DNA of 60,252 bases. Source: an uncultured Gammaproteobacteria bacterium (lineage in GTDB: Bacteria > Patescibacteriota > Patescibacteriia > CAIXNZ01). The translations under genes were made by a program, and so were the position numbers. Below the pieces are notes generated by a model. The model did not search any database. It saw nothing but the letters and a program-made list of their open reading frames with translations, and was not told the origin of the DNA. The stretch lies in NCBI GenBank assembly GCA_964400885.1, contig CAYNWH010000007.1, forward strand, positions 1 to 60,252, written 5' to 3'. Positions 33,714 to 57,900 of this stretch are shown here, piece by piece (position 1 is the stretch's first letter; each line of letters opens with the position of its first letter).

Positions 33714-34409
33714 ATGCCCACACCTTTAAAAAAAGAAAGCAAAAATAAACAAAAAATCTATTTTGTTTATTTCATTATTTTTTCGCTTGTCATTCTTATT
33801 ATTTTTGCAGTCATTATTATTGGCAGTTTCTGGGATTACTGGTCACAACTAGGCCGGATAGAAACTTTTTACAAAAACCAGGCCCTGCTTTTGACTCAAA
33901 AATCTCCGCAACTAAATGCTTATGATCCAACCACAGGCGATCCTCAAGCCAAGGTAACTGTTTTTGAATACAGCGACCTTTTTTGCACTGCTTGCCAAAC
34001 CCTTCAGCAAAATTTAAATGATCTGGAAAAATTTTATGGCAACAGAATAAGAATTGTTTTCAAAGGCCTGCCCATTACAATTAATCCGGAAAACAGGCCG
34101 GCTTTAATTGCTGCTTATTGCGCTGGCGAACAAAACCAATTCTGGGCTTATAAAGATTTGCTCTTTCAGGATCCCTTAACTTTAAATAAACAAAAATATT
34201 TAGAATATGCCCAGCAGCTAAATTTAAATCTTGATAATTTTAATAATTGCCTGGCCAGCCAAAGATATGACGCGCTTATTAACCAAAATTTAACTGATGC
34301 TTTGACTCTGCAAATCACTTCTGTCCCGACTGTTTATGTTAATAAGCAAAAGCTGGAAGGCTTTATTGATTATAATGGTTTAAAAAATCTTATAGACCAG
34401 CAACTTTGA
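33714..34409 (+). CDS. membrane-anchored DsbA-like thiol:disulfide oxidoreductase
   Basis: N-terminal TM anchor. Thioredoxin fold with the CxxC motif FCTACQ and the TSVPTVYV cis-Pro loop. Confidence 0.8.
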   Translation: MPTPLKKESKNKQKIYFVYFIIFSLVILIIFAVIIIGSFWDYWSQLGRIETFYKNQALLLTQKSPQLNAYDPTTGDPQAKVTVFEYSDLFCTACQTLQQNLNDLEKFYGNRIRIVFKGLPITINPENRPALIAAYCAGEQNQFWAYKDLLFQDPLTLNKQKYLEYAQQLNLNLDNFNNCLASQRYDALINQNLTDALTLQITSVPTVYVNKQKLEGFIDYNGLKNLIDQQL

Positions 34410-34428
34410 AATATTTAAAAATTTATTT

Positions 34429-35796
34429 ATGCTTAAAAAAACAATAACCTTCAGTTTTCTTCTTGTCCTTAGTTTCTATTTGCTGCTTTTTATTTCTGTG
34501 CCAATAATTTTGGCTCAAGCAGCACCGTCGCCTGCTCCGGCCCCAGCGCCAGCCCCAACTCCGGCGCCAACACCAGCTCCTAGTCCGGCTCCAGCACCCA
34601 GTGGTGCCAGCAGCACGTCTTCAGATATTATACTCAAGCTCCAGCAGCCTTTTGGCACTTTGGCCCAAGAATTAAATATCACCAGTGAAAGTATTGGCGT
34701 ATATATTAAAGCTATTTATGTTTTTGCTTCCACTGCCATAATTGTCATAGCAATTGTTGCAGTCATGGCCGGCGGTATCCAATGGCTTACTTCAGCTGGT
34801 AATCCGCAAAAAATCGGCCAGGCCAAAGATACTATTTTAAAAGCTTTACTGGGCTTATTTATTGCTATCTTTGCTGTTTTTATCCTGGAAACAGTCAGCC
34901 CCGGCACAGTCACTTTTAACCCGATTAATGTAGAGGTGATAACGCCCAATAACTGTTGCGAATATCTAGTCCCTGGGGAATCTAATAAGTCTTATGACTA
35001 TATGGAACAAAAAGAATGCAGTGATAAACAAGGAAAAATTGTTGACACTAGCAAATGCTTGGGAGTTGCCAATTTTAATGCAGAACAATTAGCTGCTCAA
35101 AGCTGCCACACTTGTTATAACGAAGCATGCGCAGATAGAAATTTAATAAACATAAGTCAACCCTGCCCCCAAGGACAGCATTGCTGTGGTTCAGCAGCTC
35201 CGAAACAGGCCTCAGACTGTATTTCAGGAAATATGACACCTAAAAATCAATGCGTATGCAGGAATACTAATGAATGCAAACCCAATGAATGGTGCTGGAA
35301 ATATGATTTACCAGGCGTTCCTGGCATATGCACCCCTAAAAAAAGCTCTGGCCAAAGCTGTGGAGATACACAAATAACTTTATTCACGGGAGCTCTTATA
35401 TATGATGTAATCGTAGCTGACAATTTCCAATGTATAAGTGGAATATGCGCAGAAATACAATTTAGAACAATAAGGGGCGGTACCGCGGTTACTGCACGTA
35501 AGGCTTGCATACCCCAGAGAAACCAGGGCGTGTCTGGCACCTGGCAAAATGGCAAACCAACAGGTGGAGAATATTGTAATCAGAGCTATCAATGTAAGGG
35601 CGGCTATTGCTATGCTGATCGCTATAATGGTTGGGAAGGAATGTGCTTACATGATCCTGTCCCTCCTGGACTCCCTTGTGATGAAAGAAAACTAGATGGT
35701 GCAACAATCGGAGATGCAGCATTATCAAATGCTCCTTGCGCAGGTGATGCTTGTGCCTCTCTCAAAAATGTAGGCAGTGGCAATTGTCCCTTCTAA
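34429..35796 (+). CDS. T4SS pilin (TrbC/VirB2-like) domain fused to a C-terminal cysteine-rich module
   Basis: Signal peptide, an (AP)n linker, then VAVMAGGIQWLTSAGNPQKIGQAKDTILKALLGLFIAIFAVFIL. This is the GG..W/Y.TS.G.P.K...AK..I...GL.I pattern of the pilin family seen in CPR T4SS loci. About 290 aa with 28 Cys (hand count) follow. Confidence 0.6.
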   Translation: MLKKTITFSFLLVLSFYLLLFISVPIILAQAAPSPAPAPAPAPTPAPTPAPSPAPAPSGASSTSSDIILKLQQPFGTLAQELNITSESIGVYIKAIYVFASTAIIVIAIVAVMAGGIQWLTSAGNPQKIGQAKDTILKALLGLFIAIFAVFILETVSPGTVTFNPINVEVITPNNCCEYLVPGESNKSYDYMEQKECSDKQGKIVDTSKCLGVANFNAEQLAAQSCHTCYNEACADRNLINISQPCPQGQHCCGSAAPKQASDCISGNMTPKNQCVCRNTNECKPNEWCWKYDLPGVPGICTPKKSSGQSCGDTQITLFTGALIYDVIVADNFQCISGICAEIQFRTIRGGTAVTARKACIPQRNQGVSGTWQNGKPTGGEYCNQSYQCKGGYCYADRYNGWEGMCLHDPVPPGLPCDERKLDGATIGDAALSNAPCAGDACASLKNVGSGNCPF

Positions 35797-35828
35797 AAAA
35801 TATCTTTTCATTTTAAAATTAAAATTAT

Positions 35829-35863
35829 ACGCCTAGTCTTTTTCATAAAGCTGGGCGTTTTTA
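35829..35863 (+). terminator. terminator after the pilin-fusion gene
   Basis: ACGCCTAG..CTGGGCGT + T5, with one mismatch. Confidence 0.5.
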
Positions 35864-35905
35864 TTTACCTTCAATAAATAATCTGCTAAGCTTAATATGA
35901 TAACT

Positions 35906-35974
35906 GAACCACGAAATTTTAACCACGAAAGCACACGAAATTTTCGTGCTTTTCGTGAATTATTTTCGTGGTTC
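35906..35974. repeat. 69-nt imperfect palindrome built from CACGAAA / TTTCGTG words
   Basis: Outer arms GAACCACGAAA (35906-16) and TTTCGTGGTTC (35964-74) are perfect. CACGAAA occurs 3 times and TTTCGTG 3 times. Confidence 0.8.
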
Positions 35975-36021
35975 CGTTAACAATAGATCTATGCCAAAAC
36001 AAGCAAAAACAAAAATATAAT

Positions 36022-36459
36022 ATGGCTCTATTTAATTTAAAAACAAATAAAAAAACAAGAAAATTTCTGCGCAAAAATATGACCAGAGCAGAAACTGTTT
36101 TATGGAGAGAATTGAGAAGAAAAAATCTGGGTTTCAAATTTCGAAGGCAATTTGGAGTCGGGCCATATATAATTGATTTTTATTGTCCGCAATTAAAATT
36201 AGCCATTGAATTAGATGGCGATGTTCATACGTTCAAATCAATACGTAAAAGAGACAAAATTAGGCAAAAATTTTTAGAGAGTAACGGTTTATATATTAAA
36301 AGATATTGGAATTCGGATATTTTAAATAATTTAGATTCGATAGTTGATAATATTTATAACACTTGTAGGCACTTATCTAAATTAAAGCCAAAGGAAAATC
36401 TTGAGCTACTTAAATCTCCACCTAAGATTAGGGGGAGATTACAGAGGGGGTTGGAATAA
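36022..36459 (+). CDS. DUF559 endonuclease-domain protein (Vsr-like fold)
   Basis: MTRAETVLWRELRRKNLGFKFRRQ...IIDFYCPQLKLAIELDGDVH, the classic DUF559 core. Start set to MALFNLK. Confidence 0.8.
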   Translation: MALFNLKTNKKTRKFLRKNMTRAETVLWRELRRKNLGFKFRRQFGVGPYIIDFYCPQLKLAIELDGDVHTFKSIRKRDKIRQKFLESNGLYIKRYWNSDILNNLDSIVDNIYNTCRHLSKLKPKENLELLKSPPKIRGRLQRGLE

Positions 36460-36512
36460 AAACCTCCCCTGAACCCCTCCTTGCTAAGGAGGGGCGATCG
36501 AGGACGATTCAT
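36425..36512. repeat. cluster of G-run and C-run arms at the DUF559 3' end
   Basis: GGGGGAG, GAGGGGG, CCTCCCC, CCCCTCC and GGAGGGG, including the perfect hairpin CCCCTCCTT-GC-TAAGGAGGGG. Confidence 0.7.
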
Positions 36513-36540
36513 AAAATAAAAACCATTAACTATAAATAAA

Positions 36541-42226: not shown

Positions 42227-42377
42227 ATAATTTGTCTGTTTAAGATTGATTTACTTAATTATATTATAAATAAAAATAAAGCTTTTGGCAAATAAATCCC
42301 TTATTTTTATTAACAATTGACTTTTAATGAATTTCAAGCTAAAATATTAGATATTAGCGTAATTTAAGAAGGCTTTT

Positions 42378-42469
42378 GGAGAGGTACCCAAGAGGCTGAA
42401 GGGGCGGGTTTGCTAAACCTGTAGGTCGGTGTTTTATCCGGCGCGGGGGTTCGAATCCCCCCCTCTCCG
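42378..42469 (+). tRNA. tRNA-Ser (anticodon GCU)
   Basis: Acceptor GGAGAGG/CCTCTCC, anticodon arm CGGGT-TTGCTAA-ACCTG, a long variable arm, T arm GGGGG-TTCGAAT-CCCCC, discriminator G. Confidence 0.85.
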
Positions 42470-42516
42470 ATCGTAACTATAACTGTGACAATGACAATAA
42501 CTATAATTTGTAATTT

Positions 42517-42882
42517 ATGACATTTAGATTTCGTAATTGGCCAGTCTATAATGATGCAAGGAATTTTAGTAAAGAAGTTAATCAATTAATGAATGATTAC
42601 TTCCCGAAAGAAGAACGTTTTTTATTGACAGATCAAATCCGTAGGGCGCTTAATTCAATGATATTAAATATAGCCGAAGGAGCAAATCGTACAACCGATA
42701 AAGACACTAATAGCTTTATGAATCGCGCATTAACTTCTTTAGATGAAGTAGTTGCCGGATTAGATTGCGCTCATGACGATGGTTACATCAGCGCTGCAAC
42801 ATTTGAATTATATTTAGGCAAAGCAGAAAATATCGCTAAACAGCTCAGAGGCTTTAGTAATCATCTGCAAAAAGAAAAATAA
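42517..42882 (+). CDS. four-helix-bundle protein (the family first described inside 23S rRNA intervening sequences)
   Basis: FRNWPVY..AR.F...V......FPKEERF.L.DQIRRA..S...NIAEG is the characteristic opening of this family. 121 aa. Confidence 0.8.
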   Translation: MTFRFRNWPVYNDARNFSKEVNQLMNDYFPKEERFLLTDQIRRALNSMILNIAEGANRTTDKDTNSFMNRALTSLDEVVAGLDCAHDDGYISAATFELYLGKAENIAKQLRGFSNHLQKEK

Positions 42883-42927
42883 AAAGCATATTGTTATCGT
42901 TATAGTTATCAGTTATCGTCAAAATTA

Positions 42928-43014
42928 GGAAGGGTGGCAGAGCGGTCGAATGCACCGGTCTTGAAAACCGGAGCCCCGGCAACGGGGCCGTGGGTTCGAA
43001 TCCCACCCCTTCCG
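42928..43014 (+). tRNA. tRNA-Ser (anticodon UGA)
   Basis: Acceptor GGAAGGG/CCCTTCC, anticodon arm CCGGT-CTTGAAA-ACCGG, long variable arm (GCCCCGGCAACGGGGC), T arm GTGGG-TTCGAAT-CCCAC. Confidence 0.85.
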
Positions 43015-43778: not shown

Positions 43779-44438
43779 TTATTGCCAAAAAGCGCCATCA
43801 ACTTTCCAGGCATCGTTTTGTTTAACTAAGTTTAAAATTATATCCTGATAAAAAATGCGCGGATTATTAATATCATTTTTAAATTCTTGTCTCTGAGTTT
43901 TTATTCTTATTTCTGCTTTGCCTGCTCCTTCATCTAAATTTAAAACCTCGCTGGAAATTGCTTTTGTTTCCAACGCATAATAAATATCTATATTGGGATT
44001 TTGTTTCTGCAACTCTGCTTTATATGTTTGCTGCACCCAATTACTCATGGAATTTGTCATAAAACTATCAAGATCATCTAAATTGGTATAATTACTTTGG
44101 TTGGAATAACTGCCAAATCTTTCAGCAAAAGCTTGGGCCACAAATAAAACATTGGCTTGCTTTTGCTGCTCTATTTCTGGAGCTGCAGCTCCGCCCAAAT
44201 CCGCTAAGACTTCGGAATCTGGATTATTAAAAGTATTTGGCATCACAGTCTGTCCTACTGGTAAAACTGGAACTTGATTTAAATTAGTATTAGCATTAAC
44301 CAAGCTCGGTGGCGGCGCTTTAAAATAAACCAAAGCTAAGTAAATTAGTGCTGCAATTATTAAAAGTAATAATAATAATAAAATTAGCCAAATTAATCGC
44401 TTACTTTTTGTTAATTTCTGTTTTGTTTTTTCAGCCAT
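43779..44438 (-). CDS. bitopic membrane protein; possible VirB8/TcpC-like (NTF2-like) component
   Basis: Short basic N-terminus, one TM segment (LIWLILLLLLLLIIAALIYLALVYF), then a ~130-aa C-domain ending LVKQNDAWKVDGAFWQ, as NTF2-like folds often do. Last gene of the VirB4 operon. Fold assignment is an inference. Confidence 0.4.
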   Translation of the reverse strand: MAEKTKQKLTKSKRLIWLILLLLLLLIIAALIYLALVYFKAPPPSLVNANTNLNQVPVLPVGQTVMPNTFNNPDSEVLADLGGAAAPEIEQQKQANVLFVAQAFAERFGSYSNQSNYTNLDDLDSFMTNSMSNWVQQTYKAELQKQNPNIDIYYALETKAISSEVLNLDEGAGKAEIRIKTQRQEFKNDINNPRIFYQDIILNLVKQNDAWKVDGAFWQ

Positions 44439-44475
44439 AAAATTTGCTAGTTATTATAAAATTTAAATTAAATAT

Positions 44476-46407
44476 TTATATCGGGATTTCTTCTACTCCG
44501 GCTGGCTTGGCTTGATCGGGCTGATTTTCGCTCTTCTCTGCTTCTTCTTCAAATTCTTTCTTCGCTGCTTCAATCTCTAAAAGCTGCCTAGGATCGCTGG
44601 TAATTAACTGATCTTCACTATAAGAAGCAACGACTTTAATTGCAGCATGTTTTCTGCCGGCAAAAAAGATACCCTCGCCTACGCCGCCTTCTAAAAGCAG
44701 ATATTTTTCTCCTTCTGTTAATAAAAAGATTTTTTGGATAGTGTCAATTGCCGCCGGGGATTGTCTTAAAAGCAATTGTAAAGCTGAATTAGTGACAATC
44801 GCCTTGCCATAGGGATTATTTAAGAAATCATTTACATCCTGGGTAATGGTAGTTACGCCCAAATAATATTTTCTGCATCTTTTTACTAAGGCATAAATAA
44901 ATTTAGCCGAGTCTTCCTGGGTCATCAGCCACCAAGCTTCATCAATGACTAAAATCCTTTTTTTAACTTCTGAGCGAACCACATTCCAGATATAATTAAC
45001 AATGCTGTAAATAGCAATAGGACGCAATTCATCTTCCAAATCCCTAACGCTAAAAGTCACCAATTGATTTTTGACATCAACATTAGTTGGTTTATTAAAT
45101 AAGCCGGCAAAAGTTCCTTCTGTATATTTCTTTAATCTCAAGCTCAAACTTTCTGCGCCTTCCATGCCTGCTAAAATATTCTGCAAATCTTGCATAACAG
45201 GCGGCTCAATTACTGCCAAGTCTGATTCCGGCGTAATATCTTTGCTGGCATAAGTTTCTAATAATGCGCGGTCTAAAATTGTATCTTCCTCTATTGATAA
45301 TTTACCCAGCATAATGCGCAATAAACCTTTCAAAGTAATAACTGCGCTGCGGATAATATCTTCGGTTGACGCATCGCCAATTGCTCTGGGCAAATCAAAT
45401 GGATTAATTTTATTTTTGGAAGCTAAGGAGATATCAATATATGTACCATTAACTGCTTCTGACAAATGGAGATATTCTCTTTCTGGATCAATAATAATAA
45501 CATCAGTACCTAACATTAAACTTCTTAAAACTTCTAATTTAATAGTATAACTTTTGCCAGCGCCTGAAGTCGCAAAAACTACAGAATTAGCATTTTGCAA
45601 AGAAAAACGATCAAAAAGGATTAAACTATTATTATGCCGATTTATGCCATATAAAATGCCGTTGTCCGAGGTTAATTCCGATGAAATAAAAGGAAAAGAA
45701 GAAGCAACGGGTGAGGTATTCATATTAAAAGAAACTAATAACTCATCAATGCCCAGGGGCAAAGTTGATTTGAATCCCTGCTCTGCCTGGTACAGCACCT
45801 TTTTGCTATAAATTAATTTGCCGCCAAAGATTGATTCAATTTCCGAAGTAAATTTATCTAGTTCTTCCAAACTATTAGCATAAATACTCGCATACAGAGC
45901 AAATTGGAAAAATTTTTCAATGCCTTGAGTTAATTCATCCCTTAATTTTTCCATATCCCGCAAGGCTGTCTCTAAAATCGGGTCGCGCGGCGCGCCTTTT
46001 TCAATATCTGACATTAATTGAGCCTGCAGATTGCCGACTCTCTTTTTCAGCTGTTTCAAAATTATTTCCGCTTTGACCGGATAAAAAAACATTGAGACAT
46101 CCAGAGTCTTGCTTAAATTTATTATAGGCGTAAACCAGCCAACGCTTATATAGCGCGGGTAATTCAAGACAAAAAGGGTTCTAATAAAAGTATCGCCTAA
46201 GACCAGATATGTAGGCTTAACTTCAAAAGCCGCCGGCGCAATTAAATCCTTAATATCAATTACGCCTTTGCGGTAAATTCTTTCTTCTTCCAGCGTAATT
46301 TGCTCTGCTTTAGCTGCTGCTTCTTCCTGAGCTTTTTTTTGGGCTGCTGTCAATTCTGCTGGCAGTGCTTCTTGTTTTGATGATTTTTGGGTAATGTCTA
46401 ATGCCAT
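44476..46407 (-). CDS. virB4: VirB4/TrbE-type T4SS ATPase
   Basis: Walker A FATSGAGKSYT, Walker B ILVIDEAWWL. The N-terminal segment (FIRTLFVLNYPRYISVGW) is typical of monoderm VirB4 homologues. Confidence 0.85.
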   Translation of the reverse strand: MALDITQKSSKQEALPAELTAAQKKAQEEAAAKAEQITLEEERIYRKGVIDIKDLIAPAAFEVKPTYLVLGDTFIRTLFVLNYPRYISVGWFTPIINLSKTLDVSMFFYPVKAEIILKQLKKRVGNLQAQLMSDIEKGAPRDPILETALRDMEKLRDELTQGIEKFFQFALYASIYANSLEELDKFTSEIESIFGGKLIYSKKVLYQAEQGFKSTLPLGIDELLVSFNMNTSPVASSFPFISSELTSDNGILYGINRHNNSLILFDRFSLQNANSVVFATSGAGKSYTIKLEVLRSLMLGTDVIIIDPEREYLHLSEAVNGTYIDISLASKNKINPFDLPRAIGDASTEDIIRSAVITLKGLLRIMLGKLSIEEDTILDRALLETYASKDITPESDLAVIEPPVMQDLQNILAGMEGAESLSLRLKKYTEGTFAGLFNKPTNVDVKNQLVTFSVRDLEDELRPIAIYSIVNYIWNVVRSEVKKRILVIDEAWWLMTQEDSAKFIYALVKRCRKYYLGVTTITQDVNDFLNNPYGKAIVTNSALQLLLRQSPAAIDTIQKIFLLTEGEKYLLLEGGVGEGIFFAGRKHAAIKVVASYSEDQLITSDPRQLLEIEAAKKEFEEEAEKSENQPDQAKPAGVEEIPI

Positions 46408-46419
46408 AATACAAAATTT

Positions 46420-47079
46420 TTATTTTTCTATGCCTAATTGGCTAATATCTTTTAATCTTTGATTTTGGGAAGTCTTAGGGTTATAAGCATTATAAAGAAG
46501 TTCTATTAAGCCCTGAGTATCTAAAACCACAGTATCCAAACCCATGCCTTTTAAATTTGCCTCTATATTAGAGACAATTAAGCCCAATTCCTGCTTATAT
46601 TCTAAAAATCTTTCCCTCTTTATTTTTATTAATTTGCCCGGGGAAAATGCTTCTTTTAGCCTGTCAAAAAAATTCTTAGATTTGGAGCCTAAAGGATTAA
46701 AAGGCACAACAATAAAAAACCTTTTAGTCATTATTTCGCCAATTTCGACCAGCTCATTAATATAATCAATGTAGCCAATAATCTGCATCCTTAATAATTC
46801 ATTGGTTTGTTTTTTTTGAGCATCTCTTAATCTTCTTAAATAATTGTCAATATCTAAGCGTCTAGACTGTATGACTATTTGTAATGGATGCTCTAAAGCA
46901 TTTAGAAATTCCATATAGCCGCTAATTAAAGCTTTTTGTTCATCATCGGATTTTAAAGCAAAATTAACGCTTGAGCATAAAATTACTGCTCTTAAAGTGC
47001 CGTCCTTTAAAAGGATAGTATCTTCCCTAATTTCCGCAATATCCAAATATTTTTGGGTTGAAGGTTGCGTTACAGCCAT
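46420..47079 (-). CDS. hypothetical cytoplasmic protein (219 aa) of the T4SS-like operon
   Basis: No TM segment. Ends 12 nt upstream of the virB4 start. No family recognised with confidence. Confidence 0.5.
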   Translation of the reverse strand: MAVTQPSTQKYLDIAEIREDTILLKDGTLRAVILCSSVNFALKSDDEQKALISGYMEFLNALEHPLQIVIQSRRLDIDNYLRRLRDAQKKQTNELLRMQIIGYIDYINELVEIGEIMTKRFFIVVPFNPLGSKSKNFFDRLKEAFSPGKLIKIKRERFLEYKQELGLIVSNIEANLKGMGLDTVVLDTQGLIELLYNAYNPKTSQNQRLKDISQLGIEK

Positions 47080-47084
47080 AGATA

Positions 47085-47118
47085 TTAATATTAGTGATTA
47101 TTAGTGATTAAAAATTAG
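47085..47118. repeat. TTAGTGATTA x2 tandem (same word family, reverse orientation)
   Basis: 47091-47100 and 47101-47110 are identical. Confidence 0.75.
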
Positions 47119-47126
47119 CGGTTTAG

Positions 47127-47546
47127 CTATTCCTCTTTATAAACTCCGCCTGTATTTACTACCAAAGACAAAGAAGTCAATCTTGATTCAGGAATAGGCG
47201 GCTTGGCAATAAATTCTTTTTTAACTTCTGCCTTTTCTACTGGCGGCAAGGAGGTTATTTCTTCTTTCTGCCAAATCCGCAATCTGGGACGCCTAAAGGT
47301 CTGAACAATATTTAAAAAGAAAAAATGGAAAGGCATGCCATTGACTCTGAAAAAAGCCACAATGCCAAAAATCGCTGTTACTATCAAAGCAATGATGGCA
47401 AAAGTATTAAAATAAAATATTTTATAAAAAATAAAATCCAGCATACCAGCCACCATCATTATCAAAAACTGCCTGGTAGTTATCGGACCGATAATTTTGG
47501 TCTCAACATCAAGAAATTGTGGGACTGAAAACTGTTCAAATGCCAT
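47127..47546 (-). CDS. PrgI-family (VirB3-like) membrane protein
   Basis: FSVPQFLDVETKIIGPITTRQFLIM followed by two TM segments, the layout of PrgI/VirB3-like proteins. Lies upstream of virB4. Confidence 0.6.
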   Translation of the reverse strand: MAFEQFSVPQFLDVETKIIGPITTRQFLIMMVAGMLDFIFYKIFYFNTFAIIALIVTAIFGIVAFFRVNGMPFHFFFLNIVQTFRRPRLRIWQKEEITSLPPVEKAEVKKEFIAKPPIPESRLTSLSLVVNTGGVYKEE

Positions 47547-47550
47547 ATCT

Positions 47551-48936
47551 TTAATATTTTAAACTTTTATTTAACTCCATAATAGCTCTAAATTCCTCCA
47601 AAGTTATAATTGGATTTTCTTTTAATATTTGGTCAAATGATTTACCTTGTTTAATTGCCCTATTCATAATATCAGCATAGGTCTTATAAAGCGGGCTGCT
47701 TTTCAAAGCTTTAATCCCCTCTGTCCTTTTAACGATTGATTCTTCTTCCAAGAGATCTAATTTATCTTTTATTTTATCAATTGCTGACTTAGGATCTTTA
47801 GAAAGGCGCCGCAAATCTTCTATTTTAAAAGCAGCTAATTCATCAATAGGACCATATAACTTAGCAGCAAATTTAACATCTTCAATTTTGGGCCTGGCTT
47901 CTGAAAAAGGTTTTTTGAAGAAAGGCTGCTTTTCCTCTGTCTGCGGCGCGCTAGGTGCAGACGTTACTGGCGGCATAACTGGCTGAGAAACAGGTTCAGG
48001 TTTGGGAACTGGCTTTGTCTCAATCTTTTTTTCTGGCTCTTTTTCTTCTTTAGTAGTTAAAGCTGGCGGCGGTGGCGTTATTTCTTCCCTGCTTTCTAAA
48101 AATTCTTCCTCATCTTCTATCTTTTTTATTAAAGGACTAGCCGTCAGCTCTTGAGCTTTTTTCTCTTCTTCCATTAATTCCTTTTTAATCGCTTCTTTTT
48201 TGCTTAATTCTGCAAATTTCATGCCCTTATCTTTAAGCAGCTGATCAATGGTAATATCTGCGCCTGTAATTTTGGTTTCTGTTTCTTCCGGCCTTTTAAC
48301 TTTGGCAGCCACGTCTATTTCTTCTTCTTTAGCTTCTTTTTCTTTAAAAACCTTTTTTTCTTTTTCTAATTCCTGGCTAATTAAATCCCTGATTTTAACT
48401 CCCTGATTTGCATAACTGGCTTCAATATTTTTTAAAATCTTAAGCAAATTCTGTCCCTCACTGTATTTCAAACCCAAGCCGCCAATTTTATTGCTTCTGG
48501 TTAAAATATCTAATGTTTCGCTGTCATCTCTAATATCGCGAAACCAATTAAAAATAATGTCCTCAAATCTCTTTTCATAACGTTCACTGATTTTTAATTT
48601 TGCCTGTTTTTCTATTGCCTTGATAATATCTTCAAGTTTTGCCTGCACTGGCTCGCTGACTCCTGCCTGCCTTACAACATTTTCCGGCAACAAAGGAAAT
48701 AATTCATTTTCCAGATCATAAGTCAAATCTAAAACTAAATTAAAATTTAAATTAGCTTTTTCCTGAATTGCCAGATCAAGTTCATCTTCCTTTATCTTGC
48801 CGCTAAAATAATCGATTAAAATTTGTCTTATAATATCTTCCTTTTTTTTCTCAATTTTATATCTATCGATTAATTCATCAAGTTTAGTTGCAACCTCTAT
48901 TTTATCAAAATATTCTTGAATATTAAAATCTGTCAT
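47551..48936 (-). CDS. acidic/lysine-rich hypothetical protein (461 aa) of the T4SS-like operon
   Basis: Highly charged, with a central KE-rich and P-rich linker. No TM segment. Ends 4 nt upstream of the next gene's start. Confidence 0.5.
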   Translation of the reverse strand: MTDFNIQEYFDKIEVATKLDELIDRYKIEKKKEDIIRQILIDYFSGKIKEDELDLAIQEKANLNFNLVLDLTYDLENELFPLLPENVVRQAGVSEPVQAKLEDIIKAIEKQAKLKISERYEKRFEDIIFNWFRDIRDDSETLDILTRSNKIGGLGLKYSEGQNLLKILKNIEASYANQGVKIRDLISQELEKEKKVFKEKEAKEEEIDVAAKVKRPEETETKITGADITIDQLLKDKGMKFAELSKKEAIKKELMEEEKKAQELTASPLIKKIEDEEEFLESREEITPPPPALTTKEEKEPEKKIETKPVPKPEPVSQPVMPPVTSAPSAPQTEEKQPFFKKPFSEARPKIEDVKFAAKLYGPIDELAAFKIEDLRRLSKDPKSAIDKIKDKLDLLEEESIVKRTEGIKALKSSPLYKTYADIMNRAIKQGKSFDQILKENPIITLEEFRAIMELNKSLKY

Positions 48937-48962
48937 AATTATAAATTTTAGAGCTGAAAAAA

Positions 48963-51900
48963 TTATTTTTCTATCAAAGCGCCGGAAATCATGGTATTCA
49001 TTGCTGTTTCCATATCAGCCACTAGGCCCTGAACTTCTTCAGCAGTCAGGTCTTTACGTGTTCTGGCAAAATCCTCCAAGCGCTTTAATCTGGCCGTATA
49101 TTCTTTAGCTAATTGTTCATTTAATTTAGCGCCTCTTCTTTTTAATTTCGTTTCATAAGCAGACATGGCTTTTCTGACCTTATACAAACCTTTTTGTAAT
49201 GATTGTTTAACCTCGCCCTTAGCACCCTGCTGCTGGGCCGTAGCTAAATCAGCTTGGCTTATTTCTGGTAAGCCGCTAATTTTAACCTGATCACCTTCAG
49301 GCGTAACGCCAATATCAGAAAACCCAACATCTTCAAGTACCTCCTGGTTAACCGCGCCAGCAGCCAAACTTCGCTTAAGCTGGGATTCTCTGTGATTAAC
49401 CATTTGTCTGGCCCGATTTTCTGCTGTATCAGCTGAAACACCTCGTGATTGCAAAGCTTTTCTGATTTCAGCAATAACTTGCCCGCGATTGCGGAATTGT
49501 CCCGTCGGTTTATCAAAATTACTTTCTGCTAAAGTTTGTTTATTTTGGCTTTCGGTCTGCATAAATTGATTCATGTCATCTATTTCCATAACGCCAGGCA
49601 CAGGCTGCGGCCTTTTAGGTAAAGACGGCATAACAGTTTGCCTTGAGCCATTAATAATTTTAGCTTTAAGAAACTGCTTGCCAGCCTTATATTGATTAGT
49701 GGCATAATCACTAACAGAATCCACTGTCCTGCCTTTTAAAGCTAAAATACTATCCATTCTTTCTTTGCCAATAGCTCTTTCTGCTAATCTGGATAATCTG
49801 CCTCCGGCTGGCACTGGCGGTGCTTCAGGTGCTGGCCCTGCTGCTGGTGCTGGCGGTACAGTGGGCGGCTGACCAGCCCCACCCCTTGGGCCTTGAGCAT
49901 AATCATTAGCTTTCATACCAGTTGGCAAATACTCATCTCCCAGAATCAAATGGCCTTGGCTAACTCCGGTTGGCGCAGTATCATCTTTACGCCGTTCGCC
50001 ATTTGACTGATATTCAGCTGTGGCTGCCTCATACATTTTATTAAGCTGTTTTCTTTCAGAATCAGAAAATTGAGCCATACTATCCGGATTAGATGCAACT
50101 TCTTCAATGGCTGACGCAATATTTCTTCTAGCGCCCGGATTATAGCGGCCATAATTTTCTGTTTCCTCACCATATGCCATTAATTCATCTTTCCAAAATT
50201 CATTGCGGTCTTCACCTGTCTCAGGATCAAGCTTGCGCCGAGCAAACTTGCTTTGCTCAGCCATTTGGCTTTGCTCACTGATTTTCATTCTCCTGACTGA
50301 ATCTTTATATTCTTCTGCCGGCGTAGTAGTTTTTGGCTTTATCAAACCTTCTTCTGTCACATATAAATTATTAGTCCTCATATGACGGCCCGTTTCGTTT
50401 TTGTAATCCCGGCCTAATTGCTCAGTAAATTCAAAAAATGGCCGATCTCCCATTGTGCGGCTGAATTTCTTAGTAAAATCACCAACATCTTTAGTATCTA
50501 TCCAGCCGTTTTTAGCGCCTTGGGACATTAAAGCCCGCGCTTCCCTTAAATCGCCTTTTTTATTAGCTGCACCTAATCTTTTGCGCCAGACATTAGGATT
50601 TAAAAAAGCGCCTTCAGAATTTAACCTTTTAGTATCCTTTTCTTCCCATTGCTGCCTGACTCTTTCCACTGCCATTTTTCGCGGACCAAATCTTGAGCGA
50701 GCAGTAGCGCTTACTCTTTCAGCCGCTTCTTTTCTGCCTTCAGCTGTAGCATATCTTAAATATTTATTGCGCCGCGCATAATCACCGACAGCCTGCATCG
50801 CACCCCTGACTGGCGCACCAGCCGCTCTGACAGGAGCCATAGCAATGCCCTGCGCAGCTGCGCCAGCTCTTCTGGCCCCTCTTTCCAGCCTGCCCGCTGT
50901 TTGGTTTCTAATGGCGTTAAACCCACCAGTGGCATAGCCAGAACCAACCACGCCCATCCGGCCTGTGAAATACAAACCGCCAACCAGCATAATAATGCCC
51001 ATCATAAACCCTACTGCTCCCTCTGCCGTACCAGCGGGTGAATTAAGGCCATTCACATTATTAGTTATTTCACTTTGCTTAAAGCCGCCACTAACAGCGT
51101 CTTGGGTAATGTTTTGAGAAACACCATTCATGCTAATAATGGCAATCCACAGGAAAAAAGCTAAAAATGGCCCGACCATACAGTATTTAAAAAACTCACC
51201 CCACCATTGCTGGGATAAAGAAGCGATTTTACCGCCGGCTGGCTCAAAAACCCAGGAGAAAAAAGCTAAAGGCGAAAACACAATCAAAATCCATAAAGCC
51301 ACAATTCTAAAAGCCAAAATCACGCAAAAAATCGCGACTACAATCGTAGCAATAATAACAAATATTAAACCAAAGATACTACCTACCATTGAATCTATGT
51401 CCGCATGACTAGTGCCTGCCTGCACATCATAATTATATTTAAATAAATCTGCTGAGCCAAAACCATTTATCAAATTGCCTTGAGTAATATCTTTAAAGGA
51501 TTTAACAAAAGTTATCATAATCACCTGAAAAAAATCAATTATCAAACCAGCAATAGTCCGGCTAAAATTAACCAAAATCGCCATAATTAATAAACGGCCT
51601 AAAAGCTTGTTATAAGAATATTTTTCAATTTTCAAAACTGTGGCAAAAGCGATCAAAAGCAAACCCAGTATAAAAAACATATTAACAATATCGCGGATAA
51701 TCACCCAGCCTTTTTGCACATAAGAATTATAAATAAAATTATTATATAAGCTTAACATCACTAAAAGTTTAACCAATAAAATCAAAACCTTGCCAACTAA
51801 ACTTATCAGGGTCTGAACAATAAAATTAATAATGGAAATGCCAACCGATTTGGCTGCTCCCATAATATCCATATTAGTAGCTGAAACTCGTTCTATGGGT

Positions 51901-51974
51901 ATTAAAACCAAAACTAAAAGCATTACCAAAAATACGGCCAGCAATAATTTTTTATTTTTTATTTTTTTCAGCAT
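48963..51974 (-). CDS. polytopic membrane protein, VirB6/TrbL-like N-domain with a ~650-aa hydrophilic C-terminal extension
   Basis: About 7 TM segments in the first ~340 aa. The tail contains PPTVPPAPAAGPAPEAPPVPAGG and is visibly GC-richer, which explains the many shadow ORFs. Position next to the VirB3/VirB4 genes. Confidence 0.5.
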   Translation of the reverse strand: MLKKIKNKKLLLAVFLVMLLVLVLIPIERVSATNMDIMGAAKSVGISIINFIVQTLISLVGKVLILLVKLLVMLSLYNNFIYNSYVQKGWVIIRDIVNMFFILGLLLIAFATVLKIEKYSYNKLLGRLLIMAILVNFSRTIAGLIIDFFQVIMITFVKSFKDITQGNLINGFGSADLFKYNYDVQAGTSHADIDSMVGSIFGLIFVIIATIVVAIFCVILAFRIVALWILIVFSPLAFFSWVFEPAGGKIASLSQQWWGEFFKYCMVGPFLAFFLWIAIISMNGVSQNITQDAVSGGFKQSEITNNVNGLNSPAGTAEGAVGFMMGIIMLVGGLYFTGRMGVVGSGYATGGFNAIRNQTAGRLERGARRAGAAAQGIAMAPVRAAGAPVRGAMQAVGDYARRNKYLRYATAEGRKEAAERVSATARSRFGPRKMAVERVRQQWEEKDTKRLNSEGAFLNPNVWRKRLGAANKKGDLREARALMSQGAKNGWIDTKDVGDFTKKFSRTMGDRPFFEFTEQLGRDYKNETGRHMRTNNLYVTEEGLIKPKTTTPAEEYKDSVRRMKISEQSQMAEQSKFARRKLDPETGEDRNEFWKDELMAYGEETENYGRYNPGARRNIASAIEEVASNPDSMAQFSDSERKQLNKMYEAATAEYQSNGERRKDDTAPTGVSQGHLILGDEYLPTGMKANDYAQGPRGGAGQPPTVPPAPAAGPAPEAPPVPAGGRLSRLAERAIGKERMDSILALKGRTVDSVSDYATNQYKAGKQFLKAKIINGSRQTVMPSLPKRPQPVPGVMEIDDMNQFMQTESQNKQTLAESNFDKPTGQFRNRGQVIAEIRKALQSRGVSADTAENRARQMVNHRESQLKRSLAAGAVNQEVLEDVGFSDIGVTPEGDQVKISGLPEISQADLATAQQQGAKGEVKQSLQKGLYKVRKAMSAYETKLKRRGAKLNEQLAKEYTARLKRLEDFARTRKDLTAEEVQGLVADMETAMNTMISGALIEK

Positions 51975-51992
51975 TTATCTTGAAATTTATTT

Positions 51993-54900
51993 TTAGGGTG
52001 AAGTAATAGAATAACCAGCTTCTGTTTTTGTTGCAGTATTCCCATTATTATCAGTGGCTTTAATAGTTAAATCACCGCTAGAAGTAATAGTAATAGCGCA
52101 ATCTACTTGAGTTGAGCCAGTCTGGCTGCAAGTAAAATCAGATGTGCCTGCTGTGGTATTTGTTGTATCAACTGTCACATTACTGGCATTAATACCTGCA
52201 CTAGCCGCCACAGAAATCGTTGTATCAGTTATGCTGACAGTCGCTGTTTTCGTAGTTACATTTATTGTAATATTCAAACTGGCTGCCGGACTATTAACCT
52301 TTTCACTGCACTGATCATTTTGCCAGCTGCAGCTCGGATTCAAATTGCAATCCTGCTCTATTTTATAATAAGGGCATAAATCTACTAAGAAAGGAAAATA
52401 AGTCAAACAAGCATAGGGCTGATAATTAAAAGAACCATAAGCACTGTAAGCATTTTGGTAAATGCTATCATAAAGAGGATTAAGAGTGTCAGCTTCTAAG
52501 CACATGCCTTCTAAACCAAGGAATTCTTTCACATTTTCAATCGGGCTGCAGACGCCATTTTGACCTGCCCCGCTGCCGCTGGTAATGCCGCTAATTAGCC
52601 CTGTTTGGCAATCCGTATTATCTTTGCAAACCTTACCTTTGATATCACTAGGGGAAGTACAAATTTTAGTCACAGTAGGCGGCGTAGCCGTAACAGTACC
52701 CAGCGGAAAATTAACTTTAGTGCCTAAAGCATTTGCTTCTTCGTAATTGCATAAATTGCCTGACTGATCCAGCTGCACGCTCTGGCTGTAAAGATTTAAT
52801 AAATCTTTATAACCAGGTTGCTTAATTAAATCGTAAAGCATTGGTGAATCCTGCGCTGGGAAAATTTTACAAATCGGCTCTACAAAACGCAGATCTGACT
52901 GACCAGCTAAATTATTGACTAAAGGATAAGTGCTAAAGCCTTTTTCTAATTCAGATTCAATAGGCAAACGATCAGGTATGCTGTAGCCGGAAAAATCACC
53001 AGCGCGCCATTGCACTAAATCACTTAAGGATCCGGCGCCAAAACGATAAATATAGCCTTTTTTATTAACATAATCGCTAATTCTCTTTATCACCAAAGGC
53101 TGGTTATCAAGATCGTAACGCACATTGTCTTTTTCCGCTGAAAATTTAATGCATTCCCCGCCTGAACTTTCAATACATAAACCAGTCTCAGTGCAAACAC
53201 CCGGCTGCCAGACTTGCTCTGCTGCCAGACAATCACTTTCTTTTTTATATTGGGGATCACTGCAATAGCTCGTACAGACTGCCCATTCCTGGCAATTGCG
53301 GTCAGCCTGAACTTTTAAAATTTCTGCACTATTTCTATCAGTATTTAAAAACTGTACACAGCCCGCATTCCAGTCAACTGCAGTGCAGCTTGAACGATCC
53401 AAATTAGATCCCTGGTCAATTACAAAATAACTATCTTCAGTATTATCTTTAACTTCAACCTGATCATAAGTTACATATGAATCAGGGCAATTACCCTTAT
53501 TAGCGCCTTGATTTAGATTAAGCGGCGCATATAAGACTAGTTCAAAATCTTGCAAGTCTTCTCCTGTGTCAGCCGGCACAGTATAAAGCGCTTCTACTTT
53601 TTTCCAGTCACTCTCTGCGCTAAAAACATAAAGCGGTCCTTGAGCCACATTAGGATCTAAAGAATTAAATTCAAAAGCCGCTTCTGGCAAAGGACATTGA
53701 TCACCTCTGCCTTTAGCATCTTCTGGTACGCGGTAATAAAATGAAATTTTATAAGTTTTACCTTTTTCTAAACGGGCAATAGTCTGGCTAATAGCATAGG
53801 TAGGCACATCTGTTTCCTCTAAAGAACAATCAGTATTTGGGTATAAATATGTACTAGGGCAATCCTGGCTTGTTCTCTTAATTAATTTAATAGCACGGCT
53901 ACCCAGTTTAGGATTATCTGTTTCTATTTTCTGGCCGCCAGAACTAGCTGCTTGAGTTTGCCAGTTAGAAAGCAGGCCAGTCGGATCATTTGATTCAAAA
54001 CTGCCATTGAAAACAAAATTAGGATTAATGTCCACGAATTCTGTGCAGCCATTCCATTTGCTATCACATTCACCCACAAAGCCTTTATATTTATTAGCTT
54101 CTTCAACTTTATAAATAGTAAAAGGAGAAGCTAAGCAAGTAGCAGTATCAGTTAGCCATTCGCCGTTTTGGAACTCACAGATTTCTTGATCTTTAATCTC
54201 AGCGAAAATAGGCGCGCACTGGTTGTATTTTGAACTCCAGCCGCCGCCATTAGCCTGGCAACTTTGAGCTGTCTCAAAATTCAAAGCCGCACAGCCTAAA
54301 GTCGGACTGCCCTTTTTAAACCAGCCTTCCACTCCCTGGCCATTAAGCGTGCTAGTGGTGTATTGGCAAAGCTTAGCTGGATCAATTTTAAAATATTCAG
54401 CATTGCCTGAGTCATTAATTAATTCAGTGCAGCCCAATGATTCTTCGTTGCACATAATAGCATTAGGCACATTTATATATTTATCCGGATCATTTTTAAT
54501 ATAAATATCATTAAAATTAACTGTTACACCCTGGAAAGTTGACTGGCCTAATTTTTTACAGCCTTTATTATCTTTAGTGCAGCTATACTTATCATTAAGC
54601 ACCAAAGTCACTAAATTATCCTGTGGCACAGTATAATCATCTAAAAACGAGGCGTTATCATCATTAAACAGCTGTTTATTAGAGTTAGTTGAATTTTGAG
54701 TATCAATCAAAGCCTGGCAGCCAACAGCGCTGGAGCGGCATAAATTCGTAAAGGATTTAAGGTTATGGGTCTGGCTCAATAAATCCTGATAAGCCTGACA
54801 ACCCAGCATAGCGCCTTCTTCTTCAGCGCCAAAAATATTTTGATTACAGCTGTCTGGCGTCTGCCAGCTATTTTTAACTACATAGACATTATCTTTAACC

Positions 54901-57900
54901 ACTTTTAACAAAATATTATCCAGATAAACTTTGCTATCCAGCGAGTCAAATATTAAACTATTATTGGCAACATTATCCCAGCTGACGAAAACCGGGCCTA
55001 AAGTGTAATTGCGCCATTCATTAGTTAGACGCAAATTAGTTGCCAAAGTAGCAAATTCTTCCAAAGTTGAATCCTGAGAATCAGGCACAGCAGTGCTGAA
55101 TTTAGCTGTAATAACTTCACCGGCTGGGTTGTCGGTCTTAGCCCAGAAAGAAAGCGTATATAAATTATTTTGCTGAATATCAATAAATTTATGTATGGTA
55201 GTGACTGGCGCTGAAACAAATAAAGAATGCCCACCCACTGTCACTGATTCGCCTACTCTAGATAAGCCTTCTGAGGAAGTACCCTCTGCTCCAGCATACC
55301 AATCTAAAGCTCCTGCTCCGTCTTCAAAAGTATCAAAGCTTTGGACATAAACATTATTGCCCTGATTGCCAATAAAAGTTCGGCAGCCATTAGCTTGGGC
55401 TGAACAAGAAATCGCTTCACTAGGAATAGCATCATAAATACAAGACTGGGTATCGCTTTGCCAGCGGCCATTAGTCTTAAGACAATTATCCTGATTTGAT
55501 TCTGTTTTTCTAAAAGGATGGCAATCATCAGCAACAGAAATAGTTTTTCTAATATCTCGGTAATAATTGACTCCATTACTATCAAAGAAATTAACACAAT
55601 TAAAATCAAATTCGCCCAAAGTCAAACGGCAATCGCCAGAATCATCAATAGTTTTTGGCGCGCCAGTTGCAGTATCTTGCTGAAACTCATATTTAATCAA
55701 TTGAGGCGGTCCTGAAGCTGAACCCTGCCAAGTGAAAAATGTTTTTTCTCCCAAACCTAAATTGGGCTTAATGCATTGCCTTAGATAAGTAAAATATCCA
55801 ATACCCTCGCCTCCCGCAGCTACAGCATCTAAATTAGTAAACTGGGCACAGCCTACTTCTGCTAAAGTGCAAGTCTTGGCTGTATTAGGAATAAAATAAT
55901 TATATAAAGGATCTGGCTCTGGTTCATATAAAACCGGGTCTTGCTTAAAGGTATCATAACCCACGCATTCCGCCGGACAATAATCAGTCAAACTAACCAC
56001 GCCTGGTATTTGGGGATCACCATTTACTGGCGTATAAATTTGGCAGCCGACTTCTTCTGGCTCACAAACTTTCATAAAATTGCCACAAATTGAATCATCT
56101 GGCTTATATTTATAACAAGCTGTGACATTTGGCACAAAGACTGCTGAACTCGTAGCTGTCGGCTGATCCCAAAAACCACCTGCTCCTTCTGGGTCTTCAC
56201 AAGCTATTTTATTATCAATATTTAAAACTGGCGGCGGATCACCAGGTCCATAACCATGGCAATCTAACCGAGCCGGCGGCTTTTTATAATATAATTTATT
56301 GTTAGCGTCATAATCAGTATAAGCTGTCACGAAATTATAATTTCTAACCTGGTCTAAAGAATTAAGCGATAAATCAACCCCATCCAGATAAACAGTCGTT
56401 CCAGCTTGCCCGCCGGGTAAATAAATCATGATATCCAATTCTGTGCCACCAGCACCAGTAATTAAAGTGCTATCAACTTGATTATAATATTGATCAACAT
56501 AAAACTGTTTGCTATTTAGCTCGCTTTGAGTCTGTCTCATCTTAGCCAAATTAAATTTGATCGGCTGGCTCAGAGGCAAATTAGCTTTTAAATAAGCAGT
56601 CGCTGTATAAGTATCGCCAGCCCTGGTTAAGATCTTGTTTTCATCAGCAAACTTACTTTTATAAACCAGCACTAATGCTTGATTATCTGTCAAATCACCG
56701 ATATTAATTGCCAATTTGCTTAAACCTTGCCACACATCTGTGCCATCTCTGGAAACAAATGCCCGATCACTAAATGGCCCTTCGCCGCGCCAAGTCCCTA
56801 AAAGATTATTGCAATCTTCTTTTGTAGAATTATATAAACTGGCTCCCTGACAAAATTCATGCCAGCTGCCATTATTAGATTCACAACTAGGTTGGCAATT
56901 TGTATCATCTGGGCCTGGTTCACAAGTATCTAAATTTGATAATTTTTCTTCGACTTGTCCATCTACTTCGCATTTTTGCTGCCAAGTGCCGCCATTAGCT
57001 TGACATTTTTCTTCAGCTTCATTAACTCCAGTCGTAGCCGGATCATCAGCAAATTGCGGATTCTCACAAAGATTATATTTCAAAATGCTACTGGTGCAAA
57101 ATCTTTTAAAATCACCAACATTAGCCAAGCAGTCTGTTTCATTCACATTATTATTAATAGCACCTAAACATTGATAATCCCACGTCTGCCCATTAGCTAA
57201 ACATTCATCTTGGGTGATGCTTGTACCATCTAAACAATAACCGGACCAAGTACCATTATTCAATAAACAATCACTTTGATTATCATAGCCATAATTAAGA
57301 CAGGTTTCATTGTAAGTGCCTTGACAATCGGCTGCGCTAGCCACTTCATCCTTTAATCTTAAATCCCAATTAGCCGGGAAATTACCATCCGGAGCATATT
57401 CAAAGCTTGAATCTGCCACTAAATTATTAGCTGAATCGCGGTATAAGAAAAATTCATTACAGCCTTCATTTTGCCGATCACAGGTGCTAACATAACGATT
57501 TAAATAAATCCTGCTATCTGTTTGCCAAGCGCCGGCTAAATCAGCAGCAGTTGAATACCAAGTGCAGCCGGCATTGTTTGGGCCGCAAATATTGCTGCCG
57601 CTTAAAGTATTTTTTAAATAAGAAACAGTGCTGGCACCATTGAGACCAGTTACACTGTAAGTCCGACAACTATTAAATTCTGCTGGACAAGTATTCGCAG
57701 CAAATTGCCAGACATTTTTTTCTTTAACGCAAAAACCATAATTTTCATTTACACAGCCGCCCTTGCCATCCTCTGTTAAACAGCTGGCAAAATCCGGACA
57801 GCGCGAATATCTTTGGCTATTACTATTAGTCGTCAAAAGCTCACCATAAGGCTCAATATCGGTCTGCACTGCACAGCGCGTACTTGGCAATTTCAAAACC

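Follow-up and report, generated by a model that had tools for sequence, protein, structure and literature searches.

Within the 60,252-nucleotide stretch of DNA analysed here, hereafter the window (contig CAYNWH010000007.1 of assembly GCA_964400885.1, placed by GTDB in the Patescibacteriota), we identified a gene for a type IV secretion system (T4SS) pilin that couples a VirB2-like core to a C-terminal ectodomain bearing 28 cysteines, directly downstream of the gene of a membrane-anchored DsbA-type thiol-disulfide oxidoreductase. This architecture is conserved in related genomes, where the pilin tail is hypervariable and the DsbA gene remains linked to the pilin gene, and peptidoglycan-hydrolase domains take the place of the tail in more distant relatives. 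We propose that the protein would be a two-part VirB2-like pilin displaying a DsbA-oxidised ectodomain for host contact, a reading that we regard as evenly poised.

Scanning the 455-amino-acid (aa) product against Pfam matched T4SS_pilin (PF18895) to residues 86-154 at 29.0 bits (gathering cut-off 26.6, E 1.1e-6), and hydropathy delimited three hydrophobic segments, at residues ~2-34 (a signal peptide ending in AQA), 88-124 and 132-163. These results bear out the signal peptide, (AP)n linker and two-helix pilin core read in the preliminary description, and support, as far as sequence can, a VirB2-like T4SS_pilin domain. Residues L28-A29-Q30 are invariant in a four-sequence pilin alignment (A1), the cleavage site itself being predicted, and the topologies of the pilin and of DsbA are deduced from hydropathy and the positive-inside rule. 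AlphaFold2 (AF2) modelled the core as a helix hairpin (helices ~86-121 and 126-156) with a predicted local distance difference test score (pLDDT) of about 75-80; K133 is invariant in a second alignment (A2), as are G116, W119 and a GL-FIA-FA motif. PF18895 was also matched by all 19 further distinct long pilins that were scanned (23-40 bits), 13 of them above 26.6, while pilins of two relatives gave sub-threshold matches to TrbC/VirB2 (PF04956) and the window pilin a weak NCBIfam match to the Mbov_0395 pilin-like conjugal transfer family. With 290 residues lying beyond helix 2, the protein exceeds the small size (about 100-150 aa) usual for such pilins. Its N-terminal side is variable too, the (AP)n linker being missing in two relatives (L001 and L012; the DNA alignment to L001 is interrupted at 34527-34635) and replaced in three others (L018, L019 and L021) by a Cys-rich N-terminal domain followed by a PT linker. 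In these genes (L018:3575-5317, L019:559-2340 and L021:3584-4984), a 12-14-Cys domain and a PT-rich linker stand between the signal peptide and helix 1, indicating that both outward-facing pilin termini can be decorated.

The C-terminal part carries exactly the 28 Cys counted by hand in the preliminary description, all within residues 176-453 (residues 1-175 have none), and the runs quoted there (CHTCYNEAC, CPQGQHCC, CVCRNTNECKPNEWC and GEYCNQSYQCKGGYCY) were found in the open reading frame (ORF). It starts with a four-Cys base, whose C176, C177, C197 and C210 are invariant across four orthologues (alignment A2) and which AF2 modelled as a small beta-beta-alpha-beta unit (pLDDT 68-78), and continues with a hypervariable 24-Cys extension. 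Compared with the closest relative, L001, the proteins of the flanking genes are 75-94% identical, DsbA 75% and the pilin core (residues 65-165) 80% (75% when compared with L012), identity being 37% over the first 47 tail residues and residues 213-455 failing to match significantly (E 0.19). Identity of the DNA to L001 amounts to 77-79% up to position 34926 and is recovered from 35853, the gap at 34927-35852 corresponding exactly to the tail. An alignment of six tails paired 25 of the 28 window Cys with a Cys in at least two of the five others, at 13-20% identity for the non-Cys positions, aligners being known to favour Cys-Cys pairing; the Cys framework of the tail is apparently retained while its loops diverge. 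The Cys count of the ectodomain, extracted by an automated rule, is even in 14 of 16 clade members and turns even in the other two once the A-x-A cleavage site is placed by eye, while NlpC/P60-tailed pilins of more distant relatives, whose catalytic Cys must be free, show odd counts.

In the orthologues compared, inserts rich in Cys always follow either the signal peptide or the second transmembrane helix, with none in the inter-helix loop, a pattern that fits both termini being outside and the loop inside. This orientation is the established topology of VirB2/TraA, and the Cys-rich tail is predicted to be extracytoplasmic. An exhaustive HMMER search of 1.84e9 representative proteins returned no tail homologue at E<=1e-3 besides the pilin itself; likewise, no similarity was found between the tail and the 100-Cys giant protein or other ORFs of the window, and Pfam gave no match to a peptidoglycan-hydrolase domain (SLT, NlpC/P60 or M15) in the window pilin. 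The tail was also considered as the target of a diversity-generating retroelement, a candidate that we rejected, no repeat of the tail DNA being present in the window and no reverse transcriptase among its Pfam matches.

Pattern scans of GTDB genomes and JGI metagenomes contributed 41 further loci to the comparative set, and word-indexed homologue searches provided one to nine proteins each among the matches listed. The same architecture is repeated in P0002, P0003, L010 and L012-L025; P0002 (428 aa) and P0003 (465 aa, Candidatus Uhrbacteria) are full-length homologues encoded in loci collinear with the window from LemA through RadA, RecG and VirB4. When all loci were inspected by script, about 20 independent contigs proved to carry the propeller-DsbA-long pilin-RadA cassette, complete or, near a contig end, in part; their full-length pilins have 325-594 aa and 20-60 Cys. 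The preliminary description had set the long pilin apart from the usual ~100-150 aa, but it is no oddity here: the long form is the normal one at this locus, with tails of 18-60 Cys, and the window gene is, judged by these relatives, a typical member of an undescribed pilin subfamily. Two genomes encode short pilins at the orthologous position, Candidatus Buchananbacteria (L007/L009, 180 aa) and Candidatus Falkowbacteria (L011, 179 aa), with four tail Cys each and with the DsbA and propeller genes still preceding them. In a different arrangement, loci L036-L047 (e.g. L041:3184-5269 and L043:1641-4590) hold arrays of 4-8 pilin genes, in which several plain pilins (94-158 aa, most of them Cys-free) stand beside a single longer one of 166-211 aa whose tail has 8-14 Cys; no DsbA-like ORF was found inside their fetched flanks.

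The gene upstream of the pilin had been described as encoding a membrane-anchored thioredoxin-fold protein with a CTAC active site, an assignment confirmed by Pfam matches to Thioredoxin_4 (6e-26, 92 bits, cut-off 23.2) and DSBA (1e-9, 39 bits, cut-off 25.6). The protein shows the C91-T-A-C94 active site, the cis-Pro loop TSVPT and a second conserved Cys pair (C136/C179), and its Lys-rich N-terminus is followed by a single hydrophobic anchor (residues 12-44, transmembrane segment 15-38) and then by the catalytic domain, predicted from the positive-inside rule only to lie outside the cytoplasm. Matches in the PDB included 3F4S, 3GYK, 3EU3 and 6EEZ, the nearest being the Wolbachia alpha-DsbA1 (3F4S) and the Bacillus subtilis BdbD (3EU3). 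It is the sole DsbA in the window and the sole membrane protein of the window with a CXXC motif. Its features are conserved in 20 orthologues, and 20 of the 22 DsbA-like sequences have CXXC, those of L032 and L033 (L032:2854-3591 and L033:2907-3671) showing a monothiol CPYS/CPFS site instead. The DsbA gene lies directly upstream of the pilin gene in about 20 contigs; in the window the two are co-directional and separated by 19 bp, with a terminator only downstream of the pilin. The same adjacency is found in L032, where the pilin has 499 aa and 27 Cys, and in L033, where it has 651 aa and 46 Cys. The neighbourhood of these two loci, with an SBP_bac_5 gene and a HepT/MNT pair, is unrelated to that of the window, showing that the adjacency outlives local synteny.

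At more distant loci, the pilin gene occupying the slot just before RadA bears a Pfam-recognised peptidoglycan-hydrolase domain with intact catalytic motifs (L026-L029; Table). These genes are in effect VirB2-VirB1-type fusions, located at the slot orthologous to that of the window pilin. In L026, L027 and L028, a second long pilin with a Cys-rich tail is encoded upstream of the propeller, the contig of L029 starting at the propeller gene. The two pilin cores of one genome are 56-74% identical to each other and 29-41% to the window core, their tails being different; such co-evolution of cores within a genome, with differing tails, is what a core shared for assembly or docking would lead one to expect. 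Since hydrolases occur in the same slot, the core appears to serve for anchoring or assembly while the outer domain can be exchanged, and a pilin core with a swappable ectodomain looks, from these sequences, like the general principle. Of the disulfide-rich head proposed in the preliminary description, the continuous ORF and the predicted extracytoplasmic location stand, but the term is too narrow given the hydrolases found in the same slot, and a discrete fold was not demonstrable (AF2 pLDDT <30).

Table. Coordinates of the pilin, its parts, its neighbours and the hydrolase-tailed pilins of relatives (window positions unless a locus is named).
Feature	Position	Strand	Basis or remark
VirB2-like (PF18895) pilin with Cys-rich C-terminal ectodomain, 455 aa	34429..35796	+	ORF, Pfam; closes co-directional cluster
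Signal peptide, residues 1-31 (predicted)	34429..34521	+	KK n-region, hydrophobic core, A29-Q30-A31 cleavage motif
(AP)n / Ser-Thr low-complexity linker, residues 32-64	34522..34620	+	N-terminal segment, predicted extracytoplasmic, indel-variable
Conserved pilin core, residues 65-165	34621..34923	+	Two hydrophobic helices, short basic loop QKIGQAKD
4-Cys tail base, residues 166-212 (C176, C177, C197, C210)	34924..35064	+	Kept by most orthologues, the short 180-aa pilin among them
Hypervariable 24-Cys extension, residues 213-455	35065..35793	+	No Pfam domain
Intrinsic-terminator-like hairpin and U-run	35829..35867	+	33 nt past the pilin stop codon
Membrane-anchored (predicted N-in) DsbA/BdbD-type thiol-disulfide oxidoreductase, 231 aa	33714..34409	+	Pfam, PDB relatives
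Membrane-anchored beta-propeller-like protein, Pro-rich linker, 417 aa	32456..33709	+	Constant partner of long pilins
Conserved membrane protein, 200 aa	31820..32422	+	Upstream of propeller; no family above threshold
T4SS operon	43779..60233	-	Pfam P-loop_TraG, AAA_10, PrgI, TraC_F_IV; NCBIfam TrsD
SLT-tailed pilin	L026:3575-4846		PF01464, 1e-20; ES, GLMQ, AYNGG motifs
Peptidase_M15/VanY-tailed pilin	L027:3668-4849		1e-8; H-x6-D, WWHFE motifs
NlpC/P60-tailed pilins	L028:4484-5812, L029:2067-3401		2e-10; DCSG, GHV motifs

The pilin gene ends a co-directional cluster whose order is LemA, M48, a 283-aa membrane protein, ClpC, the 200-aa membrane protein, the 417-aa propeller, DsbA and pilin, with gaps of 4-33 bp between the last genes. 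RNA folding attributed to the hairpin beyond the pilin gene a minimum free energy of -15.7 kcal/mol (z -4.9 against shuffled sequences), and the block 35853-35907, which starts in its 3' arm, is conserved with L001; a scan for consensus promoters and terminators gave counts at chance level. The propeller, 62-85% identical across the clade, adjoins the pilin in all loci; its matches to PD40 and TolB are weak, and its two Cys are conserved in an ADKC-x12-YC motif. In L006, where a long pilin (P0004) is encoded inside the T4SS operon just past VirB4, a full-length propeller homologue (L006:11395-12639, E 1e-11) follows it within the same operon, and the propeller is probably an unrecognised accessory protein of the T4SS or pilin. 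The 200-aa membrane protein is syntenic in L001, L004, L007, L010, L011, L012, L014, L018, L021, L024 and L028; compared with a membrane protein of L006, it showed no similarity. The T4SS operon of the window encodes the giant 2746-aa protein, a 1003-aa polytopic protein, a 461-aa protein, PrgI/VirB3-like and TrsD/TraC-like proteins, VirB4 and a 219-aa protein, and is found at the same relative position in L001, L003 and L007. In agreement with the first reading, which had placed the pilin about 8 kb from the VirB4 operon and on the opposite strand, the VirB4 gene (44476-46407, minus strand) is 8.7 kb away, with housekeeping genes in between.

Under the proposed reading, the protein would comprise a conserved N-terminal module, made of a Sec signal peptide and a two-helix membrane/assembly hairpin that would dock to the T4SS or polymerise at it, and a swappable C-terminal ectodomain of ~290 residues and 28 Cys, in which the four-Cys base would be followed by fast-evolving, small disulfide-braced modules. 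After Sec export and signal-peptide cleavage behind A31, the hairpin would insert with its two termini on the outside and its basic loop inside, and the DsbA/BdbD-type enzyme, anchored in the membrane and presumably co-transcribed, would oxidise the 28 tail Cys into about 14 disulfides. The resulting rigid, protease-resistant and variable tail would be exposed on the cell surface or on the T4SS pilus and could act, probably with the beta-propeller, as the host-contact (binding or specificity) element of the T4SS of an epibiont; in relatives, the peptidoglycan hydrolases in the tail slot would attack the host wall. A bolder joint claim would make the T4SS pilus of the class ABY1 a modular display filament, on which DsbA-oxidised hypervariable heads recognise the host or hydrolases drill its wall, the pilin being the epibiont's host-specificity and penetration device with a dedicated oxidase and a propeller partner. 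We consider this extension doubtful.

Observations on both halves of the proposed reading, the pilin and the oxidase, weigh against it. On the pilin side, a Foldseek search with the core model (pLDDT 65) retrieved neither VirB2 nor TraA, nothing at E<=0.001 and only generic helical hairpins, and a profile search against PDB sequences gave no match. The AF2 model of the full pilin, built from a four-sequence alignment, reached a mean pLDDT of 36.7 with the tail below 30, and with a tail that has no homologue or recognisable binding fold and that AF2 could not fold, an adhesin role would rest on analogy. Moreover, a 290-residue domain on each subunit may pack badly on a VirB2-type helical lattice, and we know of no experiment or structure that shows PF18895 proteins forming a pilus. 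The main rival, possible although we think it unlikely, takes the hairpin as a mere membrane anchor, with neither polymerisation nor T4SS membership, for a membrane-tethered, Cys-rich surface protein (adhesin, wall-binder or protective coat) that would share only its ancestry with pilins. It would account for a gene situated 8.7 kb from the T4SS operon and clustered with LemA, an M48 protease and ClpC, for a tail so large relative to its core and for the missing fold-level match to solved pilins, but a simple transmembrane anchor would need far less than the conservation observed in this core (80%, with G116, W119, K133 and GL-FIA-FA invariant). The SLT, M15 and NlpC/P60 tails would function just as well if tethered to the membrane, with the cell's own wall as one possible substrate; yet the two pilin cores present in one genome co-evolve, a distant homologue and its propeller partner lie within the T4SS operon of L006, and the array loci combine one Cys-tailed pilin with several plain pilins.

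On the oxidase side, no match to the DsbB, VKOR or CcdA families was found among the window ORFs of >=110 aa scanned (all but three overlapping alternative-frame ORFs), so the partner reported as unseen in the preliminary description remained so within that scan. The 283-aa polytopic neighbour was considered as a DsbB/VKOR analogue and rejected, its Cys being not conserved. In L032 and L033, the DsbA-like active site is CPYS/CPFS and not CXXC, which argues against a classical oxidase mechanism in those lineages. The DsbA gene also persists beside the 179-180-aa, four-Cys pilins (e.g. L007 and L011), indicating that it is not tied to the large module, whereas L028 and L029 have no adjacent DsbA although one of their pilins contains 24 tail Cys. 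Finally, with the whole region syntenic across the clade, over 27-47 kb in related genomes, the DsbA adjacency could in part reflect inherited gene order.

That synteny, the four-Cys pilins with a DsbA neighbour and the Cys-bearing pilins of L028 and L029 without one also favour a second alternative, to which we give a minor but real chance, that DsbA is a general extracytoplasmic oxidase standing beside the pilin through inherited gene order only. Other exported Cys proteins do exist in the window, the giant protein (100 Cys) and the propeller (two Cys), and they are likely further DsbA clients. However, gene order alone sits poorly with an adjacency kept in L032 and L033, where all other neighbours differ, and in L026 and L027 despite changed surrounding gene content; the short orthologues, too, keep their four tail Cys, and the gaps are tight (4-19 bp). 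The dedicated oxidase suggested in the preliminary description is upheld in part: the adjacency is conserved in about 20 contigs, and a role of DsbA as "dedicated" oxidase of the pilin is plausible, although the term itself is unproven with DsbA kept beside four-Cys pilins.

The divergence of the tail, extreme and reminiscent of toxin families, could also suggest a tethered pro-form of knottin-like toxins or inhibitors, released by proteolysis against host or competitors. Spacings of the inhibitor cystine knot (ICK) type (C-x6-C-x5-CC-x3-C-x(n)-C) occur in orthologous tails, each of eight of them containing one or two matches to the canonical-like pattern, and there are weak matches to Dickkopf_N and DUF7107. 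The window tail itself, however, has no match to the canonical spacing C-x(3-7)-C-x(3-6)-CC-x(1-4)-C-x(4-13)-C, no processing site or protease devoted to it is apparent, its modules do not repeat one unit in tandem, and the slot holds enzymes, not peptides, in relatives, all of which makes this reading very improbable. As for an artefact, a frameshift or assembly chimera joining a small pilin to an unrelated Cys-rich gene, the usual 94-158 aa of array pilins and a tail with no homologue in a large protein library might hint at it, but its probability is next to nil, the two parts forming one gene with the same continuous ORF in at least 13 independent contigs assembled from different samples, a GC content at third codon positions in the tail (0.305) like that of neighbouring genes (0.31-0.34), and a conserved four-Cys base bridging core and extension.

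Several other features of the window were observed. The giant ORF heading the T4SS operon (51993-60233, minus strand; 2746 aa, 100 Cys, i.e. 3.6%) has an N-terminal hydrophobic segment and one CBM_4_9 domain. In the same operon, at 44476-47079 (minus strand), the VirB4 function is split between a 219-aa TrsD/TraC-like protein and a 643-aa VirB4 ATPase, which we take to be the arrangement of MPF-FATA-like systems already described in Patescibacteria. An insertion of ~630 bp (35908-36540) separating the pilin terminator from RadA, with no counterpart in L001, contains an ORF for a DUF559/Vsr-like endonuclease (35968-36459, plus strand) preceded by repeated CACGAAA / TTTTCGTG motifs. The segment 10000-16000 has a GC content of 0.41-0.46 against 0.33-0.36 in its flanks and encodes DapB, an OMP_b-brl-like ORF (27.7 bits, cut-off 28.7) overlapping a family-less 490-aa ORF, and Lactamase_B_2; it could represent an island, or else a mis-join, within a contig that otherwise resembles those of the candidate phyla radiation (CPR). 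At 42377-43014, a gene for a 23S rRNA-intervening-sequence protein (42517-42882, plus strand) lies between two tRNA-Ser genes, with no rRNA nearby.

Patescibacteria, which are ultrasmall, account for a large share of bacterial diversity. In the only species tested, Southlakia epibionticum, epibiotic growth depends on the T4SS and its pilins (PMC10633639; for the pilins also PMC12857230), and yet a 2024 perspective called the role of this T4SS 'completely unknown' (PMC11665869). VirB2-like pilins and pilin arrays are already known in Patescibacteria (PMC10633639, PMC12102498, PMC12857230), but tails rich in Cys, a linked DsbA and fusions to hydrolases are mentioned in neither Wang et al. 2023 (PMC10633639) nor Quinonero-Coronel et al. 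2025 (PMC12102498), and no description of Cys-rich pilins, of DsbA in CPR or of pilin-hydrolase fusions in Patescibacteria was found in the literature that could be searched. The pilin subfamily provides concrete, testable candidates for how Patescibacteria recognise and breach their hosts, and the constant presence of DsbA beside it suggests that the patescibacterial surface depends on oxidative folding, besides offering a handle for recombinant production of the tails.

Like the PF18895 pilins of the S. epibionticum array, the window pilin has a signal peptide, two hydrophobic helices, a short basic loop and a Pfam match above cut-off, belongs to a genome with a monoderm-type (PrgI/TrsD/VirB4) T4SS, and shows variability consistent with host adaptation. 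It differs from array pilins by its length (455 aa against about 100-150) and by the 28-Cys ectodomain after helix 2, and whereas those pilins are variable throughout, it varies in its tail alone, the core being strongly conserved. Its gene, 8.7 kb from virB4 and beside DsbA and beta-propeller genes, is also placed differently.

With BdbD (3EU3) and alpha-DsbA1 (3F4S), the window DsbA shares the Thioredoxin_4/DSBA fold, the CXXC motif and the cis-Pro loop, its C136 and C179 aligning with the second structural Cys pair of alpha-DsbA1, and it is membrane-anchored like the DsbA-like proteins of monoderms. In contrast with BdbD/DsbA systems, no DsbB, BdbC or VKOR was seen in the 60 kb, and the gene is consistently located directly upstream of a pilin; its active site is CTAC against CPAC in most orthologues and CXXS in the distant L032 and L033.

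SLT, NlpC/P60 and M15 domains are the enzyme classes by which T4SSs breach peptidoglycan. They are found in L026-L029 as in the VirB1, PrgK and TraG(pIP501) hydrolases, but there the hydrolase is fused to a pilin core and is not a separate protein, and the window pilin has none. With ICK and Dickkopf/colipase-like mini-proteins, the tails share a conserved Cys framework with hypervariable loops and, in orthologues, ICK-like spacing; unlike these, they match no family above threshold and consist of chained modules tethered to a membrane protein.

In VirB2-type pilins, the C-terminus points to the exterior of the pilus. A natural domain hundreds of residues long is not known to us in any such pilin and did not emerge from the literature searched; to our knowledge, the present subfamily would be the first VirB2-type pilins with large natural ectodomains. 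The combination of a conserved assembly module with a variable exposed domain is encountered in type IV minor pilins, tip adhesins, sortase-pilus tip adhesins and the display of short epitopes on the C-terminus of F-pilin, the machinery and fold of type IV and sortase pili being unrelated to those of the window pilin. With wall hydrolases occupying the tail position in relatives, such pilins look like display modules for host contact.

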